Assembly (NCBI GenBank): GCA_029256705.1
Contig: JAQSXK010000006.1
Coordinates: 3,021 to 67,020 of the forward strand
Reading direction: 5' to 3'
DNA: 64,000 bases
From: Clostridia bacterium
GTDB lineage: Bacteria > Bacillota > Clostridia > TANB77 > CAG-465
The notes below the pieces were generated by a model that was given only the letters and a program-made list of their open reading frames with translations, was not told where the DNA came from and ran no database searches. Below are positions 15,411 through 58,225 of the stretch, in pieces; the stretch's first letter is position 1, and every line of letters starts with the position of its first letter. Made by a program: the position numbers and the translations under genes.

Positions 15411-15439
15411 AAAACCACCTTTCTAAAACCAATGTTTTC

Positions 15440-15540
15440 ATAAAGTTATCCACAGAGTTATCAACAGGTGTGGATAACTTTTCGACAAATTAATACTAAC
15501 AAGACAATCATTTTACATAATTTCTGTGGACTATTGTGAA
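15440..15540. promoter_or_regulatory. Second DnaA-box cluster upstream of dnaA. Likely for autoregulation and an oriC arm.
   Basis: TTATCCACA 15446-54, TTATCAACA 15458-66, TGTGGATAA 15469-77, TGTGGACTA 15525-33. Confidence 0.8.
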
Positions 15541-15784
15541 ATTTGTGAAAAATCGATTTAAAATTTATACATATAATATATCACTAATTTACTGAAAATT
15601 CAAGTTATTTTAGTAATTTTAACAAAAATAATCAAAATATCTTTTTAATTTTTTATTTGTAGAAATATGGAAAATTATTATTATTTTTTTATATATAAAA
15701 TTATTAATATTTTTAATAAATCATATCTTAGTATTAAAAATGTTTTATTTTTTTATTAATCATGAGAAAAAATTATAAAAAAAT

Positions 15785-15813
15785 TTGACAAAATGAACAA
15801 AATAGTGTATAAT
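15785..15813 (+). promoter_or_regulatory. Sigma-A promoter of the rpmH-rnpA operon
   Basis: TTGACA, 17-nt spacer ending in TG, then TATAAT. Confidence 0.65.
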
Positions 15814-15925
15814 ATTTTCATTAATATTAAAATAGCATAATTTGTGTTAGCTTTAATATAGATTTTATATATTAAAGTTTTTTAAAAATGTGTAAAATAT
15901 ATTAGCGAATAGGGAGGTGCCAATA

Positions 15926-16060
15926 GTGAATACAACATTTAATCCAAAAAAAATACAAAGATCAAAAGTTCATGGCTTTAGACAAAGAATGAAAACAGCA
16001 GCAGGAAGAGCAGTATTAAAGAGAAGAAGAGCAAAAGGAAGAAAAGTACTATGTGCTTAA
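15926..16060 (+). CDS. rpmH: 50S ribosomal protein L34 (GTG start)
   Basis: Own translation: [56 protein letters not shown]. The gene is below the ORF-track length cutoff. Confidence 0.9.
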
Positions 16061-24241: not shown

Positions 24242-24330
24242 GGAGGAGTGTCCGAGTGGTTTATGGAGCTAGTCTTGAAAACTAGTGATATCGCAAGGTA
24301 CCGTGGGTTCGAATCCTACCTCCTCCGCCA
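24242..24330 (+). tRNA. tRNA-Ser (anticodon TGA), CCA encoded
   Basis: 89-nt cloverleaf with a long variable arm and T-arm GGTTCGAATCC. Anticodon loop cTTGAaa. GGAGGAG / CTCCTCC acceptor stem. Confidence 0.9.
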
Positions 24331-24384: not shown

Positions 24385-24474
24385 GGAGAGTTACCCAAGT
24401 GGTTAAGGGGGCAGTTTGCTAAACTGTTAGGCGCCTTTTGGTGTGCGAGAGTTCGAACCTCTCACTCTCCGCCA
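24385..24474 (+). tRNA. tRNA-Ser (anticodon GCT), CCA encoded
   Basis: 90 nt with a long variable arm, T-arm AGTTCGAACCT, and anticodon loop tTTGCTaaa. Confidence 0.85.
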
Positions 24475-32731: not shown

Positions 32732-32796
32732 ATTTTAAATATATATAAGTAATAATTTTAAACCTTATTAATAAAATGTAATAGGTGATTTTGATT

Positions 32797-34290
32797 ATGA
32801 AAAAATTAACAGACGATTTAGGTAATCCAATATTTAATGATGATTTTTCTTTGTCTACAGGTATACCAGGTATAACAGTGATAGAGGATACATATATGAT
32901 GAATAAACTTGCACATTTCAATAGAGAAAGAATACCTGAAAGAGTTGTTCATGCAAAAGGTTCTGGGGCTTTTGGATGCTTCGAAGTTACAAATGATTTG
33001 AGTAAATATACGTGCGCAAAATTTTTGTCTAAAGTAGGTAAAAAAACAGAAATGTTAGCAAGATTTTCGACTGTTGGTGGTGAAAAAGGTTCATCAGATA
33101 CCGCGAGAGATCCAAGAGGATTTGCCCTTAAATTTTATACTGAAGATGGTAATTATGATTTAGTAGGGAATAACACACCAGTTTTTTTTATAAGAGATGC
33201 TATAAAATTTCCAGATTTTATCCATTCCCAAAAAAAAGATCCTAAGAGCGGACTAACTAATTATAATATGTTTTGGGATTTCCTTTCACTTACGCCAGAA
33301 TCTATGCATCAGGTTATAATACTTTTTTCAGATAGGGGTATACCAAAAGGTTTTAGACATATGCATGGATTTGGAACTAACACATTTATGTGGTATAATG
33401 AAAAAAATGAGTATTGTTGGATTAAATATCACTTCAAGACTGAACAAGGTATAGATAATTTTAATCAAGAAGAAGCGAATATTTTGAACGGAATAGATCC
33501 AGATAGTTCAAGGCATGATTTATATGATAGTATAAAATCTGGTAACTATCCATCATGGAAAGTATATGTGCAAATAATGAGTGTTGAAGAATCGAAAAAA
33601 TATAAATTTGACCCTTTTGATCCAACAAAAGTATGGTATCATAAAGATTATCCACTTATTCCACTTGGTAGAATGGTATTAGATAAGAATCCACAAAATT
33701 TTTTTACAGATATAGAGCAAGCTGCATTTTCCCCATCACATTTTGTTAGAGGTATTGGTCCGTCGCCAGATAAATTATTACAAGGAAGACTTATGGCATA
33801 TCCTGATGCACATAGACATAGAATAGGAACAAATTCTAATGAGCTTAGTGTAAATAAAGCTAAAAATATGGTTACAACATATCAAAAAGATGGAAATATG
33901 GCGGATGATTCACAAGGAAATACAAGACTTAATTATTTTCCAAATAGTTATGAAGATGTTTATACTGATCAAAAATATAAAACACCTAACTTTGATATTT
34001 CTGGTTTTATTCAAAGACATACTTATCCATCATCAGATATAGACTTTGAGCAACCTGGTGAATTATATAGAAGGGTAATGAGTGATAAACAAAAAGAAGT
34101 TTTAATAAATAATATATGTAATAGTTTGAAACTTGCAGATCTTAAATTACAATATAGAATGACTGCATTATTTTACAAAACAGATGTGAATCTAGGAACT
34201 AGAATATCAGATATATTATCACTAAATGTAGATAATATAAGGGCATTAGCATCAATGACACAGGAGCAAAGAGTTATAAATACAAAATGA
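32797..34290 (+). CDS. katA: Monofunctional heme catalase
   Basis: KLAHFNRERIPERVVHAKGSGAFG, distal His and Asn motifs. AGGTGA RBS before ATG 32797. Confidence 0.9.
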   Translation: MKKLTDDLGNPIFNDDFSLSTGIPGITVIEDTYMMNKLAHFNRERIPERVVHAKGSGAFGCFEVTNDLSKYTCAKFLSKVGKKTEMLARFSTVGGEKGSSDTARDPRGFALKFYTEDGNYDLVGNNTPVFFIRDAIKFPDFIHSQKKDPKSGLTNYNMFWDFLSLTPESMHQVIILFSDRGIPKGFRHMHGFGTNTFMWYNEKNEYCWIKYHFKTEQGIDNFNQEEANILNGIDPDSSRHDLYDSIKSGNYPSWKVYVQIMSVEESKKYKFDPFDPTKVWYHKDYPLIPLGRMVLDKNPQNFFTDIEQAAFSPSHFVRGIGPSPDKLLQGRLMAYPDAHRHRIGTNSNELSVNKAKNMVTTYQKDGNMADDSQGNTRLNYFPNSYEDVYTDQKYKTPNFDISGFIQRHTYPSSDIDFEQPGELYRRVMSDKQKEVLINNICNSLKLADLKLQYRMTALFYKTDVNLGTRISDILSLNVDNIRALASMTQEQRVINTK

Positions 34291-34439: not shown

Positions 34440-34793
34440 ATGAAGTATATAATAATAACAATTTGTTTTATAGTATCATATTGTGGATTTGGTGCAATAA
34501 ATTTTTATCAGGCAAAAAATGTAGAGCCTTCAATTAGAAATTTGATACTATATAATTTATGCATAATACCTATAACTTTTATAATGAATTTAATAGTAAC
34601 ATTTACTTTTAATAAGGGATATAAGGCAGTGGGAGAAATGCTTCCAATAACAATAATTTATTTAGCAGTTGGAGTTTTTTCTTATGTAATTGTAAATTAC
34701 ATTTTCTTTAAAGAAATTCCTAAATTAAATCAATTAATTGCTATTGTATTAGTCTTTATAGCATTGATACTTTGTAATATAAAGGGTAAATAA
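34440..34793 (+). CDS. Small hydrophobic membrane protein, hypothetical
   Basis: 117 aa with 3-4 predicted TM segments. Confidence 0.5.
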   Translation: MKYIIITICFIVSYCGFGAINFYQAKNVEPSIRNLILYNLCIIPITFIMNLIVTFTFNKGYKAVGEMLPITIIYLAVGVFSYVIVNYIFFKEIPKLNQLIAIVLVFIALILCNIKGK

Positions 34794-35285: not shown

Positions 35286-35801
35286 TCACTTAAAATTATA
35301 TATAACAGTATTATTATTTCTTAAACTTTCTTTGCAATCTATTGATCTTTGGTTTGTACTTCCTCTATAAGCTAAAACGTCACTTTTAAAATTAATATCA
35401 AATTTACCGTCAATAAGAATATCTGTATTATTTAGTAATGAATTAAAGCCATTATTTTCATTTGAATTTTTTAATAAAAATTCAAATTCATATCCTGTAT
35501 ATACAATCACATCTAGTTTTTTTCTATCTAATTTTGATAGTAGTTGTGATACTTGGTTAGCTTGCATAAATGGCTCTCCACCACTTACAGTAATACCTTT
35601 TAAGAGAGGATTTTTAGTAATATCGGTTATAATATCATCTATAGCTATAAGATTTCCACAATTAAACGAATGAGTTTGAGGATTGTGACATCCATCACAT
35701 TTATGTGGACAACCTTGTGTGAATAATACGTATCTTATTCCTGGTCCATCTACAATTGACTCTTTAACTATTCCAGATAACCTAATTTTTTCATTGTCCA
35801 T
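35286..35801 (-). CDS. nrdG: Anaerobic ribonucleotide reductase activating protein
   Basis: Radical-SAM CPHKCDGC. Confidence 0.9.
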   Translation of the reverse strand: MDNEKIRLSGIVKESIVDGPGIRYVLFTQGCPHKCDGCHNPQTHSFNCGNLIAIDDIITDITKNPLLKGITVSGGEPFMQANQVSQLLSKLDRKKLDVIVYTGYEFEFLLKNSNENNGFNSLLNNTDILIDGKFDINFKSDVLAYRGSTNQRSIDCKESLRNNNTVIYNFK

Positions 35802-35829
35802 AAAAATACCTCCGTATTAAAATTTTATA

Positions 35830-38151
35830 CTATAATGAGTGTTTTATTCTGTCTTTCTCTTCTGATTTTTTTGCATTATTAAATCTATCTATTGTACCAA
35901 CTAAGTATCCAGTAATTCTTCTTATTCTTTCAAAGCCACCTAAATCATTTTCAAATTCTTTTCTACCACATTGAGGACATGTGTCTCCAATTATTCCTGT
36001 GTAACCACAAACAGGGTCTCTATCTACTGGATGATTAATTGAACCATATCCAATACCTGATTCTTTCATACATCTTATTATTTGTTCAAAAGCTTCTAGA
36101 TTTTTTGTAGGATCACCATCTAATTCTACATAACTTATATGACCAGCATTTGTTAATTCGTGATATGGTGCTTCAATTCTAATTTTATCAAAAGCGTTTA
36201 TTTTATAATATACTGGAACATGAAAAGAGTTTGTATAATAATCTTTATCTGTTACTCCTTCAATGTTTCCAAACCTTTTTCTATCCATTTTGACAAATCT
36301 ACCAGATAGACCCTCTGCTGGAGTGGCAAGTAATGTATAATTAAATCCACTTTTTTCCGCTTCTTCATCCATTCTTTGTCTCATATGTTTTACTATTTTT
36401 AGTCCTAATCCTCTTGCTTCTTCAGTTTCGCCATGATGATTACCAATAAGAGATTTAAGTGATTCTGCAAGTCCAATGAAACCTACAGATAGAGTGCCAT
36501 GTTTTAAAATTTCTCCAACTTCATCTTCTAATTTTAATTTTTCAGATCCAAGCCATACGCCTTGTCCCATCAAAAAGGGATAATTCAAAACTTTCTTCTT
36601 TGCTTGAATTTTATATCTATCCATTAATTGTTCTATAACAAGATCAATTCGCTCATCTAGTAATTTAAAGAATAAATCTACATTATGATTTGATAATATA
36701 GCAAGTCTTGGTAAATTTATTGAAGTAAAACTTAAATTACCTCTACCACAGACAACTTCATTTTCTTTATCATAAATATTAGCCATTACTCTGGTTCTAC
36801 ATCCCATGTATGCTACTTCACTGTTATAGTCTCCCTTTTTATAGTATTTTACATTAAATGGTGCATCAATAAATGAAAAATTAGGAAATAGTCTTTTAGC
36901 TGAAACTTTACATGCTAACTTAAACAAATCATAGTTTGGTTCACCTTCATTGTAATTGATTCCTTCTTTAATTTTAAATATTTGTATAGGGAATATAGGG
37001 GTTTCTCCAAATCCAAGACCAGCATCTGTTGCAAGCAGTAAATTTTTCATTACAAGTCTTCCCTCGGCAGAGGTGTCTAATCCATAATTTATAGAGCTAA
37101 ATGGTACTTGTGCGCCTGCTCTTGAATGCATAGTATTTAAATTATGTATAAATGCTTCCATTGACTGATATGTTGCTTTATCAATTTCTTTGTATGTATA
37201 TTTATTTACGAATTCTTGAATTTTATTTACTATATTTTCACTAAATTCTTTTAATAAAATGTTTTTTTCTTCATTTAAATAGTTATTTGTATTTTCTAAT
37301 GTAGGTATCATATTTTTTGTGGATTCAATTTTATTAATCAAATCATTAACATAATTTTCGGTATCTGATTTTTCAGTAAGTAATTCGATTGCTTTAATTA
37401 AATTCTTTACATGTAATTTTTTATATGTTTTTCTTACACCAATTGCTAATGCATATTCGAAGTTTGGTATACTCTGTCCACCATGTTGATCATTTTGGTT
37501 AGATTGTATTGCAATTGCAGCAAGGGCTGCATAACTTGCTATATCATTTGGTTCTCTTAGATGACCTTCACCAGTTGAAAATCCGTTTTCAAATAATTTG
37601 ATTAAATCTATTTGAGTGCATGTAGTTGTTAATGTTAAAAAATCTAAGTCATGTATATGAATGTCTCCTTCTACATGTGCTTTAGAGTGTTTTTTATCCA
37701 AAACAAACATTTGATAGAATTTTTTAGCACCTTCACTACCGTACTTTAGCATTGTACCCATAGCTGTATCTGCATTTACATTCGCATTTTCTCTTTTTAT
37801 ATCGTTATCCTTACTGTTTGAAAAAGTTAATTCTTCAAACGTTTTCATTATTTCACTATTCATTTCTCTTAATCTTGTTCTTTCAGCTCTATATAATATA
37901 TAAGCTTTTGCAGTGGTTGCATGCCCTTCTTCAATTAATATTTTTTCTGTGGCATCTTGGACTTGTTCAACAGTTGGAACATTTCCATTAATTTTTGATT
38001 CAAGATATTCACAAACTTTTTGTGCTAGCTCCTCGGCAATTTCATAATCATGACCTCCAACTTCTACTGCTGCTTTATAAATTGCTTTTGAAATTTTTTC
38101 GACATTAAAGGCTACTTTTCTGCCATCTCTTTTTATTATTTTAGTTATCAT
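35830..38151 (-). CDS. nrdD: Anaerobic ribonucleoside-triphosphate reductase
   Basis: N-terminal ATP-cone, C-terminal Zn ribbon CGYTGIIGDTCPQCG, glycyl-radical motif RITGYLVG. Confidence 0.9.
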   Translation of the reverse strand: MITKIIKRDGRKVAFNVEKISKAIYKAAVEVGGHDYEIAEELAQKVCEYLESKINGNVPTVEQVQDATEKILIEEGHATTAKAYILYRAERTRLREMNSEIMKTFEELTFSNSKDNDIKRENANVNADTAMGTMLKYGSEGAKKFYQMFVLDKKHSKAHVEGDIHIHDLDFLTLTTTCTQIDLIKLFENGFSTGEGHLREPNDIASYAALAAIAIQSNQNDQHGGQSIPNFEYALAIGVRKTYKKLHVKNLIKAIELLTEKSDTENYVNDLINKIESTKNMIPTLENTNNYLNEEKNILLKEFSENIVNKIQEFVNKYTYKEIDKATYQSMEAFIHNLNTMHSRAGAQVPFSSINYGLDTSAEGRLVMKNLLLATDAGLGFGETPIFPIQIFKIKEGINYNEGEPNYDLFKLACKVSAKRLFPNFSFIDAPFNVKYYKKGDYNSEVAYMGCRTRVMANIYDKENEVVCGRGNLSFTSINLPRLAILSNHNVDLFFKLLDERIDLVIEQLMDRYKIQAKKKVLNYPFLMGQGVWLGSEKLKLEDEVGEILKHGTLSVGFIGLAESLKSLIGNHHGETEEARGLGLKIVKHMRQRMDEEAEKSGFNYTLLATPAEGLSGRFVKMDRKRFGNIEGVTDKDYYTNSFHVPVYYKINAFDKIRIEAPYHELTNAGHISYVELDGDPTKNLEAFEQIIRCMKESGIGYGSINHPVDRDPVCGYTGIIGDTCPQCGRKEFENDLGGFERIRRITGYLVGTIDRFNNAKKSEEKDRIKHSL

Positions 38152-38470: not shown

Positions 38471-38623
38471 ATGGTACAAGAAAAAATTATTGAATTGAAG
38501 AAAAAATTAGATGATCAGATAATGAATAATGATTTATATGAGAAAATATATAAAACTAGTGTGGACATTGATAAGTTAATAATAGAATATTACAAACAAT
38601 ATGGACTAAGTGGGGTTAAATAG
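38471..38623 (+). CDS. Spo0E-family aspartyl-phosphate phosphatase-like small protein
   Basis: MVQEKIIELKKKLDDQIMNNDLYEKIYKTSVDIDKLIIEYYKQ matches the Spo0E-like helical hairpin and SxxxDxLI..YY pattern. GGAAGGGTGA RBS. Confidence 0.6.
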   Translation: MVQEKIIELKKKLDDQIMNNDLYEKIYKTSVDIDKLIIEYYKQYGLSGVK

Positions 38624-39013
38624 TCGTTTGAAAATATCCATATTTTTAAATGTGTCCAATGAGATATCAAAAAGTAGTAGTCCAAGAATTATAAGTAATA
38701 AATAATCTCGTTTATTTTCCATGAACAAGAATATTACGATACCTACTATTATTATGTCATCGATATTAATTGATAGTCCAAATAGAGAAAGTCTATCTCT
38801 ATTTGGTTTAGATGGATCACTCACAAATTCTTGAGACTCTTTATTATCATCAAAAGAGATTTGACTCATGATTTCGTTAGTAGCTTCTTTTTTTGAGTCT
38901 GTTTCAATAATAGGATGAACGGGAGCAGGTCTAGTGTACATATTGTTGTATGGTATGTAATTATTATAATAGTTAGTATTATGTAACATTATTACCACTC
39001 CCCTTATCATCAA
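38606..39013 (-). CDS. Hypothetical protein with a C-terminal TM (possibly sporulation-related)
   Basis: 135-aa ORF, N/Y-rich N-terminus. Last gene of a three-gene minus-strand cluster. Confidence 0.4.
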   Translation of the reverse strand: MMIRGVVIMLHNTNYYNNYIPYNNMYTRPAPVHPIIETDSKKEATNEIMSQISFDDNKESQEFVSDPSKPNRDRLSLFGLSINIDDIIIVGIVIFLFMENKRDYLLLIILGLLLFDISLDTFKNMDIFKRLFNPT

Positions 39014-39419
39014 ATATACCTAACGCACTTCCAATAGTTAAGTATGTTAAATACTCATTTATTTTCTCTTGCCTTGATTTTCTAAGAAAAGGTTTTAGAG
39101 AAATAAGTAAATTTTTTCTAGGATCATCTTTGCTCATTGAAGACAATATTTTCTGAATTTTCATCATTGTATTTACATCAAATCCAGATTCATTACTTCC
39201 AAATAATCCTGCTAAATTTAAATTATTTAGTACATCGGATATGTTAAAATTGTTGTTTTCTTTTTTACTTTCTTTTTTTTGCTCATTTTTAAAAAAATTT
39301 TCTTGCATGTATTCTATATTATTTTTTTCTTCTTTTGGACTTGGCGGCTTTTCTTCACTTAATTTGGATTGAATTCCCTGTATCAATTCAAATAAATAAT
39401 TATTATCTTCTTTATCCAT
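38979..39419 (-). CDS. Hypothetical K/E/N-rich protein
   Basis: 146-aa ORF overlapping the next gene by 35 nt. Confidence 0.4.
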   Translation of the reverse strand: MDKEDNNYLFELIQGIQSKLSEEKPPSPKEEKNNIEYMQENFFKNEQKKESKKENNNFNISDVLNNLNLAGLFGSNESGFDVNTMMKIQKILSSMSKDDPRKNLLISLKPFLRKSRQEKINEYLTYLTIGSALGIFDDKGSGNNVT

Positions 39420-44370: not shown

Positions 44371-44435
44371 ATTTAAAGAATGCTTTGTGTTATTTTAACA
44401 TAAGGTATTTTTTTATTTTGTGAATAAACAAAAAA

Positions 44436-44462
44436 ACGTAGCAATAACTACGTTTTTATTTA
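44436..44462. terminator. Bidirectional terminator between spo0A and the convergent membrane-protein gene
   Basis: AAAACGTAG-caataa-CTACGTTTT. Confidence 0.6.
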
Positions 44463-44466
44463 TATG

Positions 44467-45030
44467 TTATTTTTTAAATAAATGCAAAAATTTACTAACC
44501 AGTGCAACAATTTTAGTTGTATTATGTTTAGCAACCGTTTTGCCTATTGCTTTACCACCAACTGTTAATGAAGCAACTAATGCACTAATAAGAAACTGCA
44601 TATTAAAATTTAACCCAAAATCATTAGTAATTTTAACCGCAATTAAAGCACTTATTGCACCACTTAAAACGCCAGATATATCACCTACAACGTCTGCACA
44701 AAAATTAGATACTTTATGTGAGTTACGTATAAGCTTAATTGCTGTCTTAGATCCTCTTAATTTTTTACTAGCTTTGGCATGAAATTCTTCTTCATTTGCT
44801 AGTGTAACAGCAACACCAATTATATCAAAGAAAATACCAACAAATATAACAATTATTAATACTAATATTGCTACAAGAATAGGTAAATCTTTTATAGATT
44901 CACTTGAAATATAAGAAAAAAATAAAGATGATATAAAAGTTAAGACAAAGATAGAAATCAACCATTTAAGTGTAGACTCGTCTGACTTTACTTTTTTATA
45001 TCTTTTTTGTTTTAAATCTTTTGTTTCCAT
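44467..45030 (-). CDS. Four-TM small membrane protein. Possible OapA (OLE-associated protein A).
   Basis: 187 aa (~21 kDa) with basic termini and 4 predicted TM helices. Immediately downstream of, and on the same strand as, a long structured non-coding region. Confidence 0.45.
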   Translation of the reverse strand: METKDLKQKRYKKVKSDESTLKWLISIFVLTFISSLFFSYISSESIKDLPILVAILVLIIVIFVGIFFDIIGVAVTLANEEEFHAKASKKLRGSKTAIKLIRNSHKVSNFCADVVGDISGVLSGAISALIAVKITNDFGLNFNMQFLISALVASLTVGGKAIGKTVAKHNTTKIVALVSKFLHLFKK

Positions 45031-45784
45031 TTTGTATTATTTACAACCCCTATTTAAAAATTATTTAGATGGTAGAAAATTAGGTAAATTTTACGGTTTA
45101 GGTCTAGTAGAATTTCTCTATTCTTTACTAAATATTACTATTTAGTCGTTTCCATTTAAAAAGAATATTCTTTGGTTACCCAAAAGACAACTAGATCACC
45201 ACTTAAATCCGTACCTTAATCCCTAAAAACCTTCGCTTTTAATAAAGCAAACATTCTAGAAGTTTTCCTAAAAAATATACTGCTACCTATTATTAGTCTT
45301 TTTCGCAATAATAATTTCATTATCATAAGTTAAAAATTATGGCCAATAATCAAATAACTCTTAAAATAAATCCCAATAATATCACTCAAGACAGGCTACA
45401 CTATGCATTGTGTCTTGGCACTTAACATAGGTTACACTTAATAATTTTGAACATTAAGTCTCCACGAAATTAGGGAATAAGCTGTATGCCATTACAACGT
45501 ACCCTAATTTCTTTACTCCCTGAAACCACGCAGAACTGGGCGTTCTGCGCATTAACAAGGAACTTCAACGATGTGCCTTTTAGTGGATTTTTAGCCCCAC
45601 CCTCACAACAGACAGTATAACTAGAATAATGCACCATCAATAATATATTATATCATAAAATTTGCTTAAATGCAAATTTGTATCAAAAACACTTAAAGTT
45701 TTTTCATGTGTGTTACATTATATAATATTATATTTTATGTGTTTTATACACAAAAAACGCACATAATATTAATGAATTTTATAT
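45031..45784 (-). ncRNA. Large ORF-free, locally GC-enriched structured region. Candidate OLE-like RNA.
   Basis: 750 bp with no ORF longer than 58 aa and clearly more G+C than the flanks. Strong hairpins include CGCAGAAC-tgggc-GTTCTGCG and AAATTAGGG...CCCTAATTT. No tmRNA, RNase P or SRP signature motifs were found. Confidence 0.4.
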
Positions 45785-46360
45785 TTATTTTTTCCACAAT
45801 CCTGTATTGTTTTTTATTGCTTCTGATGCTAGTTCCTTAAAAATTTTAGAGTATTTAATATCTGGTGGGTAGGTAAATACATTTGCATATCCATTTTTAA
45901 GTAGTAGTCCATTAAACATTTTAGACTCAATTTCCTCTTTAGAAATTTCCACTGGAGTTTCTAACCAAACATAACAAAGCAGACGTCCAAACGTATCTGT
46001 TTTACTAACATCCTTTTCAAGAAAAATATTCTTATTCAGCAATATTGATTTAGTATACTGTGTTGATTCCTTTCCGTAGAATTCAACTTTAGATGTATAT
46101 TCTGGACAATCTATCCCTATAAGTCTAACTTTATATTTTTTGGAATCAATAAGAACCTCTATTGTATCCCCATCAACAATTCTAGAGACATAAGCTTTCA
46201 AGGTATTATTTAAAATAGTAGATTCATCAAGTTTTTTTGGCTTATTAGAAACTGTTTGAGAATTATAAGTGATAAATTTGTCTATATTTTCAATATATTG
46301 ACTCGTATAAATTACAACAATTAATGATAATCCAATAATAAATTTATTTCTTCTTTTCAT
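45785..46360 (-). CDS. Secreted thermonuclease (SNase-like)
   Basis: Signal/TM followed by RLIGIDCPE...YGKEST SNase motifs. Confidence 0.75.
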   Translation of the reverse strand: MKRRNKFIIGLSLIVVIYTSQYIENIDKFITYNSQTVSNKPKKLDESTILNNTLKAYVSRIVDGDTIEVLIDSKKYKVRLIGIDCPEYTSKVEFYGKESTQYTKSILLNKNIFLEKDVSKTDTFGRLLCYVWLETPVEISKEEIESKMFNGLLLKNGYANVFTYPPDIKYSKIFKELASEAIKNNTGLWKK

Positions 46361-52734: not shown

Positions 52735-52984
52735 AAATAAAATCCCCTTTTTTCACCTTTTTATTGCATTATATCATAACAATATTTTTTTTTCAATATA
52801 TATACTAATTTTAATAAATAAATTTAATAGATTGAATTTATTTATTAAAATAAAAAAGATAGAAACATTAAATCTACCCGTTCATTTTTAATTCACTCTA
52901 CCTTAAATATTATATGAATTACAAAAAGATATATACAATTAATTAAAATAATATGAAATTAAATTATTAGAACAAGGTAAAATA

Positions 52985-53015
52985 AAAAAACTACCTTTTT
53001 GAGGTAGTTTTATAT
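52985..53015 (-). terminator. Terminator after the small Cys-rich peptide gene
   Basis: CTACCTC-aaaa-AGGTAG hairpin followed by a U-run on the minus strand. Confidence 0.6.
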
Positions 53016-53021
53016 ATAATT

Positions 53022-53171
53022 TTAAAATATGTCATTTGGGTAATAAGGTTCAATGCAATCTTTTTTATTATTGCAAAAACATGAAAATATTATAAATATT
53101 ATAATAAGTATAATTATACAACTACAACCAGAACCGAATATTCCACCTGTACTACAACGATCTTCACTCAT
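53022..53171 (-). CDS. 49-aa Cys-rich single-TM peptide (YjcZ-like sporulation peptide?)
   Basis: Perfect AGGAGG RBS 7 nt upstream. Sequence MSEDRCSTGGIFGSGCSCIIILIIIFIIFSCFCNNKKDCIEPYYPNDIF. Own terminator. Confidence 0.55.
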   Translation of the reverse strand: MSEDRCSTGGIFGSGCSCIIILIIIFIIFSCFCNNKKDCIEPYYPNDIF

Positions 53172-53182
53172 ATGAATACCTC

Positions 53183-57373: not shown

Positions 57374-58225
57374 GTGATAGTAATGAAAAAGAAAATTATA
57401 ATTATCTCAACGTCAGTGATTGCTTTATTAACAATAGTTATATTGGCTTCATATATTCTGACAAAAAATAGTGAATTGGGCGGTAAAAAATCAGACAATA
57501 TTCAGGAACAACCATTGATTAATTCTAACAATAACGAAGAGAAAACTGTAGATCCAAGTGAATATATAGAGATAAATAAAGATAGTCAACTGGCTAGGGA
57601 AATATATAATTTTGTACCTAAGTATCTTCAAAATACAATTGATAAGATGTCAGGAGAATATATATTATATTCTGCAATTTCTAGACTTGAGGAAACACAA
57701 AGTCCTACAATTAGTTATATGGTAGGTGATGAGAAGATTTCCGGGTATAGATATGATACTGTTTTAAAGGCTGCTAAAGAAATATATGGAAATAGTATTA
57801 AAATCGATAAGAAAGATGAATATAAATTACCAATTGGCTATAGCTATAAGGATGATGCATTTTGTAAATATGCCATGGGTTTTGGGTCATCTGAAGAATT
57901 TCAAATAATAAAAGAATTAAAAGAAAATGATAAGACATATAAACTTACACTATATGCGCTAAGTATAGAGTATGATATTAACGATTTAACACATATTTTT
58001 ATTTCTACTAAAAATACATATAAGTTGTATAAAAGTTCAAGTAGTGATTTAGAAGCTATAAGAAAAAGTATGGAAGAATACGTTTTGAATGGAATAGACT
58101 TAGATCCAACAAATGTAGCAAACGAGTATAAAAACAGCTTGCCATTAATAGAATATGAATTAGAGAAGCTAGATGATAGAGGAACAAAATATTTTGTAAA
58201 AAATGTTAAACTTATTTTTGATTAA
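57374..58225 (+). CDS. Membrane-anchored hypothetical protein
   Basis: 283 aa with an N-terminal TM anchor and no recognisable domain. Confidence 0.5.
   Translation: MIVMKKKIIIISTSVIALLTIVILASYILTKNSELGGKKSDNIQEQPLINSNNNEEKTVDPSEYIEINKDSQLAREIYNFVPKYLQNTIDKMSGEYILYSAISRLEETQSPTISYMVGDEKISGYRYDTVLKAAKEIYGNSIKIDKKDEYKLPIGYSYKDDAFCKYAMGFGSSEEFQIIKELKENDKTYKLTLYALSIEYDINDLTHIFISTKNTYKLYKSSSSDLEAIRKSMEEYVLNGIDLDPTNVANEYKNSLPLIEYELEKLDDRGTKYFVKNVKLIFD

Follow-up and report, generated by a model that had tools for sequence, protein, structure and literature searches.

The stretch of DNA analysed here (64 kb, referred to below as the window) is densely coding, with open reading frames (ORFs) of at least 60 aa making up 87% of its length. 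Its longest segment without an ORF of this size is a gap of 754 bp (45031..45784), located between two ORFs of the minus strand (44467..45030 and 45785..46360); the longest ORF inside the gap comprises 56 aa. A sequence-only reading of this DNA had drawn attention to an ORF-free, locally G+C-enriched region of about 750 bp, and both of these observations were borne out. The enrichment is real yet modest (28.9% G+C in the gap and 31.3% in the RNA described below, compared with 26.5% in the window as a whole) and is concentrated in about 45350-45680. The richest 200-nt stretch (41.5% G+C, ~45405) is equalled by 0.12% of the 200-nt stretches of the window.

The remaining non-coding gaps of the window contain 19–23% G+C, with the exception of a gap carrying two tRNA genes (29.7%) and of the first 720 bases (26.1%), which touch the window edge. 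The former, which is the only other G+C-enriched non-coding stretch in the window, is 468 bp long and carries two tRNA-Ser genes on the plus strand (24242-24330, tga; 24385-24474, gct). Two other long non-coding gaps, 15411-15977 (567 bp) and 52735-53182 (448 bp), are very A+T-rich (19% G+C) and gave no Rfam match at gathering thresholds.

The ORF-free stretch is a gene for the non-coding OLE RNA, an ordinary member of the described family, and it is followed by oapA. The locus is best explained as a minus-strand unit of two genes, ole-oapA, a reading to which we assign a probability of about 0.96. The following features were identified:

45647..45676, minus strand: promoter-like site (-35 box TTTGCA at 45676..45671, 18-nt spacer, extended -10 box TGaTATAAT at 45655..45647)
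45053..45653, minus strand: OLE RNA gene, match to Rfam RF01071 (601 nt, 357.4 bits, E-value 2.2e-101)
45068..45638, minus strand: likely functional RNA core, closed by helix P1 (nt 16-21 GAUGGU with nt 581-586 ACCAUC)
45529..45549, minus strand: distal P5 hairpin, RNA strand GCGCAGAAC-GCCCA-GUUCUGCG (helix 2; 90.7% paired, 10 double-sided changes)
45467..45510, minus strand: P6 stem-loop with the conserved AAUGGCAU loop (helices 3 and 4; 88% and 100% paired)
45168..45188, minus strand: P13 hairpin, the described OapB-binding site (GUAA tetraloop 45179..45176, single bulged U 45183)
44467..45030, minus strand: oapA, encoding a 187-aa membrane protein, the OLE partner (CNNM-like, DxxxD motif, four helices, OLE adjacent)
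44432..44457, both strands: two-way intrinsic-terminator-like hairpin (stem of 11 or 10 pairs followed by a T run)

OLE stands for ornate, large, extremophilic. The RNA was reportedly described by Puerta-Fernandez et al. in 2006, and those of Halalkalibacterium halodurans and Clostridium acetobutylicum are said to be the reference examples. When Rfam 15 was run on the entire window at gathering thresholds, only OLE and two tRNAs were recovered, and no second family was detected in the gap region. The comparison with RF01071, which the sequence-only reading had proposed as a check, gave a match on the strand implied by that reading; the match is untruncated (model positions 1-616 of 616) and its score of 357.4 bits compares with a gathering score of 50. 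Together with the OapA hallmarks found downstream (see below), this full-length match supports the earlier guess of an OLE RNA/OapA pair.

When the Rfam consensus structure was transferred to the 601-nt RNA, 145 pairs were retained, 129 of which are standard; the 16 mismatched consensus pairs are found in P8, in the middle of P9 and at the base of P12. The window RNA is similar to RF01071 in covering the full length of the model, in the order of its stems, in the position of oapA directly downstream and in the GNRA loops of both P13 and P14.1. The capital-letter consensus blocks of the model are matched as well, including GGUGCAnUAUUCUAGU, CUAAAAAUCC, AAUGGCAU, GUAGCCUG and GGAAAACUUCUAGA. In contrast to the family, the window RNA is very A+U-rich (31% G+C). 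It is an RNA already known in kind, which a routine Rfam scan annotates.

The perfect G+C-rich stems noticed in the sequence-only reading are both present. They correspond to the distal part of P5 (CGCAGAAC at 45529, pairing with GTTCTGCG at 45542) and to P6 (AAATTAGGG at 45467, pairing with CCCTAATTT at 45502), and none of these words recurs elsewhere in the window. The whole window contains only 11 perfect 8-bp hairpins having four or more G/C, CGCAGAAC/GTTCTGCG among them, a count that includes several overlapping frames of the same stem.

Inspection of the sequence of P6 and its flanking joiners revealed the putative k-turn elements CAUC-GUU-GAAG and GAGUAAAG. The OLE k-turn has been defined previously (PMC9723947), and in our own reading against that description the nucleotides of the proposed OapC k-turn appear to be present, with a retained C-G pair and with U-A in place of the U-G pair. 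Binding of OapB needs a tetraloop of the GNRA type and one bulged nucleotide in P13 (PMC7936274); the predicted OapB site in P13 of the window OLE is intact, its loop reading G-GUAA-C, and P14.1 is likewise tipped by GUAA. P7 alone departs from the consensus to a large extent: the stem taken as P7 (model 198-241) retains just 5 pairs with a loop of 12 nt, compared with 17 pairs in the Rfam consensus. The region from J6/7 to P8 is a common site of variation in OLE (PMC12265935; PMC11332333). P9 is of full length.

Covariation among homologous regions, also named as a check in the sequence-only reading, proved to be strong. The analysis was based on a MAFFT alignment of 21 OLE sequences, 62–99% identical to that of the window, and the structure tested was taken from Rfam and not derived from these sequences. 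The alignment contains ~210 invariant columns. The Rfam-derived structure was 87.8% paired, the corresponding value being 39–47% when the 3' partners were slid by 1–3 columns, and 79 pairs were found to be altered on both sides. None of 500 column shuffles gave values as high as those observed.

Helix P1 does not belong to the Rfam consensus structure line. It covaries among the related loci (numbered here with the prefix L), with A-U replaced by G-C in L006, L042, L072 and L080, A-U by U-A in L010 and L036, and G-C by A-U in L036. As the closing helix, P1 probably bounds the functional RNA to ~45638..45068. A possible long-range pairing, AUUCUAG/CUAGAAU (nt 27-33 with nt 395-401), is perfect and invariant, so that covariation lends it no support. 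The OLE sequence is 99.2% identical to that of the closest genome (L002), whereas the adjacent nuclease protein is only 85% identical, which is consistent with purifying selection on the RNA.

The gene downstream of OLE encodes an OapA-type, CNNM-like, four-helix membrane protein of 187 aa. The Rfam match ends 22 nt ahead of its ATG and on the same (minus) strand, which agrees with the earlier placement of the RNA directly upstream of the protein gene; a Shine-Dalgarno-like AGGGG lies ~16 nt ahead of the ATG, farther than usual. Homologues of the protein in a large protein collection number 4227. Its match to the CNNM domain (PF01595) is sub-threshold (22 bits, Pfam cut-off 28.4), no NCBIfam model matches it, and a PDB sequence search was empty at E-values up to 1. 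Both aspartates of the DxxxD motif (D113-VVG-D117), the feature which sets OapA apart from CNNM domains (PMC11332333), are invariant in an alignment of 21 homologues.

The AlphaFold2 model of the protein (mean pLDDT 77.8) predicts four long helices (17-46, 51-77, 104-138 and 144-169). Simple hydropathy strongly flags three of them, the fourth being less hydrophobic; the four transmembrane segments claimed earlier are matched in full by the model and in three cases strongly by hydropathy. The top three PDB fold matches of the model are to the archaeal CNNM protein MtCorB (7M1T/7M1U; probability 1.00, TM 0.50–0.58 normalised to the query), a link that was found by fold comparison alone. The CorB structure family is likewise the best match of H. 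halodurans OapA (PMC11332333). With OapA and the CNNM/MpfA/CorB family of Mg2+ transporters it shares a small size, four long helices, the DxxxD motif, a weak PF01595 match and a CorB-like fold. It differs in having no CBS or CorC domains and in scoring below the PF01595 cut-off; the lack of CBS/CorC and a low PF01595 score have been described in the literature for OapA relative to MpfA. A further trait described for OapA proteins is the lack of a proline that is conserved in CNNM domains.

The linkage of the two genes was analysed by scanning relatives of the 187-aa protein in one genome per species (80 loci). OLE was found directly upstream of oapA, on the same strand and in full length, in all 20 loci run through Rfam (268–367 bits), and an nhmmer profile detected it in 77 of the 80 loci, again immediately ahead of the OapA-related gene and in the same orientation. 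Two of the three OLE-negative loci end at a contig edge. In L021, nhmmer detected no OLE in the 612 nt upstream of oapA (L021 1-662).

Other deviations were observed among the related loci. Only the 3' third of OLE is left in L033 (2680-2876), where the upstream DNA resembles an ABC-transporter ATPase gene, reflecting either a rearrangement or a chimeric assembly; neither this case nor the OLE-negative loci affect the reading of the window. L078 (~2120-2870) and L074 carry an insertion of ~150 nt at the tip of P9, which is itself a long inverted repeat (alignment columns ~370-480); it may represent a lengthened P9 arm or a small element that has inserted there.

The neighbours of ole-oapA are yabG, spo0A (convergent with oapA) and, upstream of OLE, a staphylococcal-nuclease-like gene, beyond which Wzz/tyrosine-kinase/CpsB capsule genes are located. 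A Pfam scan of 41 ORFs across the window identified these genes (spo0A, yabG, nuclease, capsule genes) as well as recA and others, and no isoprenoid-synthesis gene was present among the ORFs scanned. Isoprenoid synthesis is listed in the literature among the processes linked to ole neighbours; in contrast to this classic neighbourhood, the nuclease gene, spo0A, yabG and the capsule genes take the place of the isoprenoid genes. The 16 commonest neighbours of ole reported in the literature include two sporulation genes, of which spo0A of the window may be one. Genes for OapB, OapC and MpfA were not found within the 64-kb window, and its small ORFs include no L7Ae-type or small KOW-type protein.

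Besides spo0A and yabG, the window encodes the anaerobic ribonucleotide reductase NrdDG, and the closest genome is a Bacillota metagenome genome. The host appears to be a member of the Bacillota, with a lifestyle that is probably anaerobic or extremophilic. A catalase gene (32785-34290, plus strand), i.e. an oxygen-defence gene in an otherwise anaerobe-looking host, lies close to the NrdD/NrdG and NrdR genes (35286-38151, minus strand). ORFs without a Pfam match were found at 38606-39419 (minus strand), 57374-58225 (plus strand) and 34440-34793 (plus strand); the ORF pair at 38606-39419 is likewise found in L001, the closest relative.

Comparison of the aligned OLE sequences revealed that the P13 GGGUAACC is kept in the window, L002, L003 and L004 and is absent from the remaining 17 relatives in the alignment, which are mostly genomes from gut metagenomes and have non-GNRA P13 loops (alignment columns 628-663). 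The GNRA loop of P14.1 is kept in all 21 aligned sequences. The gene order nuclease/OLE/oapA/spo0A/yabG is common only to the window, L001/L002, L003 and L004, and it is these loci that have retained the GNRA loop of P13. In their non-GNRA P13 the gut relatives resemble variant 1, published for the TANB77 clade (Fernando and Breaker 2024), a form whose hosts are for the most part without OapB and OapC; the traits of this variant are a shorter P7, P8 and P9 and a P13-tip OapB site that is often missing (PMC11332333).

This raises the question of whether the window RNA, while a true OLE, comes from a reduced lineage like variant 1, in which the particle would have fewer partners or a narrower role. 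Several of its traits point in this direction. The stem taken as P7 has only 5 pairs, P8 is short or imperfect, and judged by OapA sequence the closest relatives belong to uncultured gut Clostridia. The nearest 76 loci outside the window's own small clade come mostly from gut metagenome genomes in which P13 has no GNRA loop, in line with the description of variant 1 and of its hosts largely lacking OapB and OapC (PMC11332333). However, the window RNA differs from variant 1 in that P9 is not shortened and the predicted OapB site at the P13 tip is intact. It retains the GUAA loop and bulged U of P13 and the GNRA loop of P14.1, and the k-turn nucleotides appear to be kept. The host genome also carries spo0A and yabG, sporulation genes that set it apart from a strongly reduced symbiont. 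We therefore regard a reduced particle of this kind as rather unlikely.

The ole-oapA unit seems to be transcribed from a promoter of its own. The promoter-like site upstream of OLE has 10 of 12 consensus matches and carries the TG of the extended -10 form. In a comparison of 75 OLE loci (74 related loci and the window), the best -10 box (5 or 6 of 6 matches to TATAAT) begins 15–17 nt before a conserved GGTGCA in 70 cases; in the related loci it is mostly preceded by TG, giving the extended form TGnTATAAT, with a TTG-type -35 box. This near-fixed position across the group suggests that OLE has a dedicated promoter here. As judged from these motifs, the sigma-70-type promoter (45676..45647) probably starts the transcript near 45640, i.e. 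~7 nt past the -10 box, which falls at the first strand of P1. The transcript would then cross the ~570-nt OLE RNA (45638..45068) and the oapA frame (45030..44467), and would end at the hairpin 44457..44432, which sits between the convergent oapA and spo0A and is common to both. The promoter, the lack of an internal terminator and the shared hairpin together point to an ole-oapA transcript of ~1.2 kb. In this respect the window unit, with what appear to be its own promoter and terminator, differs from ole of H. halodurans, which the literature places inside a long polycistronic cluster.

Such an arrangement would also be expected if the RNA worked chiefly in cis, being an extended structured 5' leader that controls the translation or stability of oapA: the two genes appear to be served by a single promoter, and the distance from the 3' strand of P1 to the start codon of oapA is only 37 nt and includes no terminator. 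We consider this very improbable. The OLE of H. halodurans builds up as a very abundant RNA of its own which binds OapA (PMC12265935), ~570 nt with ~25% near-invariant nucleotides are more than a leader would need, and the spacing between OLE and oapA reaches ~300 nt in many related loci.

The view that the region is a decayed protein-coding gene or an unconstrained spacer with chance hairpins, for which one could invoke the unusual length of the gap in so dense a genome and the short ORFs (up to 56 aa) scattered over both strands, is refuted by the full-length Rfam match (E-value 2e-101), by the conservation in relatives of base pairs through double-sided changes rather than of a reading frame, and by the finding that a long ORF replaces the RNA in none of 81 fetched loci. 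An intact protein in the homologous regions of relatives, which the sequence-only reading had given as the mark of a pseudogene, was not encountered there; these regions hold the conserved RNA structure instead.

The locus is thus best read as an ole-oapA unit. The identity of OLE RNA and OapA, their linkage and the structural selection acting on the RNA come from the present analysis, and the function would be that extrapolated from distant species. By analogy with studies of H. halodurans and C. acetobutylicum, the OLE RNA would dimerise, and OapA dimers would bind to the RNA and keep it at the cell membrane; cooperative binding (2:1) of OLE RNA by OapA has been described in the literature. 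Species-dependent partners may join the particle, i.e. OapB at the P13 GNRA hairpin and OapC or bS21 at the k-turns near P5/P6. On the same analogy, the particle would aid tolerance of short-chain alcohols, cold, excess Mg2+ and poor carbon sources, possibly through its influence on a CNNM-like transport of divalent cations by OapA.

OLE genes listed in published surveys of the Bacillota already number in the thousands, and the copy described here is nothing new in kind. The short P7, the predicted OapB site, the putative own promoter and the spo0A-side neighbours are minor variations within the published range. The practical value of the identification is that it annotates a 754-bp 'empty' stretch as OLE and a 'hypothetical' membrane protein as OapA. 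Among the conserved bacterial non-coding RNAs for which the field still seeks a biochemical function, OLE is one of the largest, so that every correctly annotated copy adds comparative data.

The small comparative point offered by this copy is that it represents a lineage with a short P7 and yet with an apparently intact OapB site and its own putative promoter. It is conceivable, although we hold this only tentatively, that the window and L002–L004 form a small spore-forming clade whose OLE is intermediate between the full-length RNA and variant 1 (P7 and P8 short, P9 and the predicted P13 OapB site intact, with a promoter of its own beside spo0A) and which marks the point of OapB loss. Should complete genomes reveal OapB here but not in the sister gut lineages, the clade would stand at the step where a protein partner was lost from the OLE particle and could be used to map which elements of the RNA depend on which protein.
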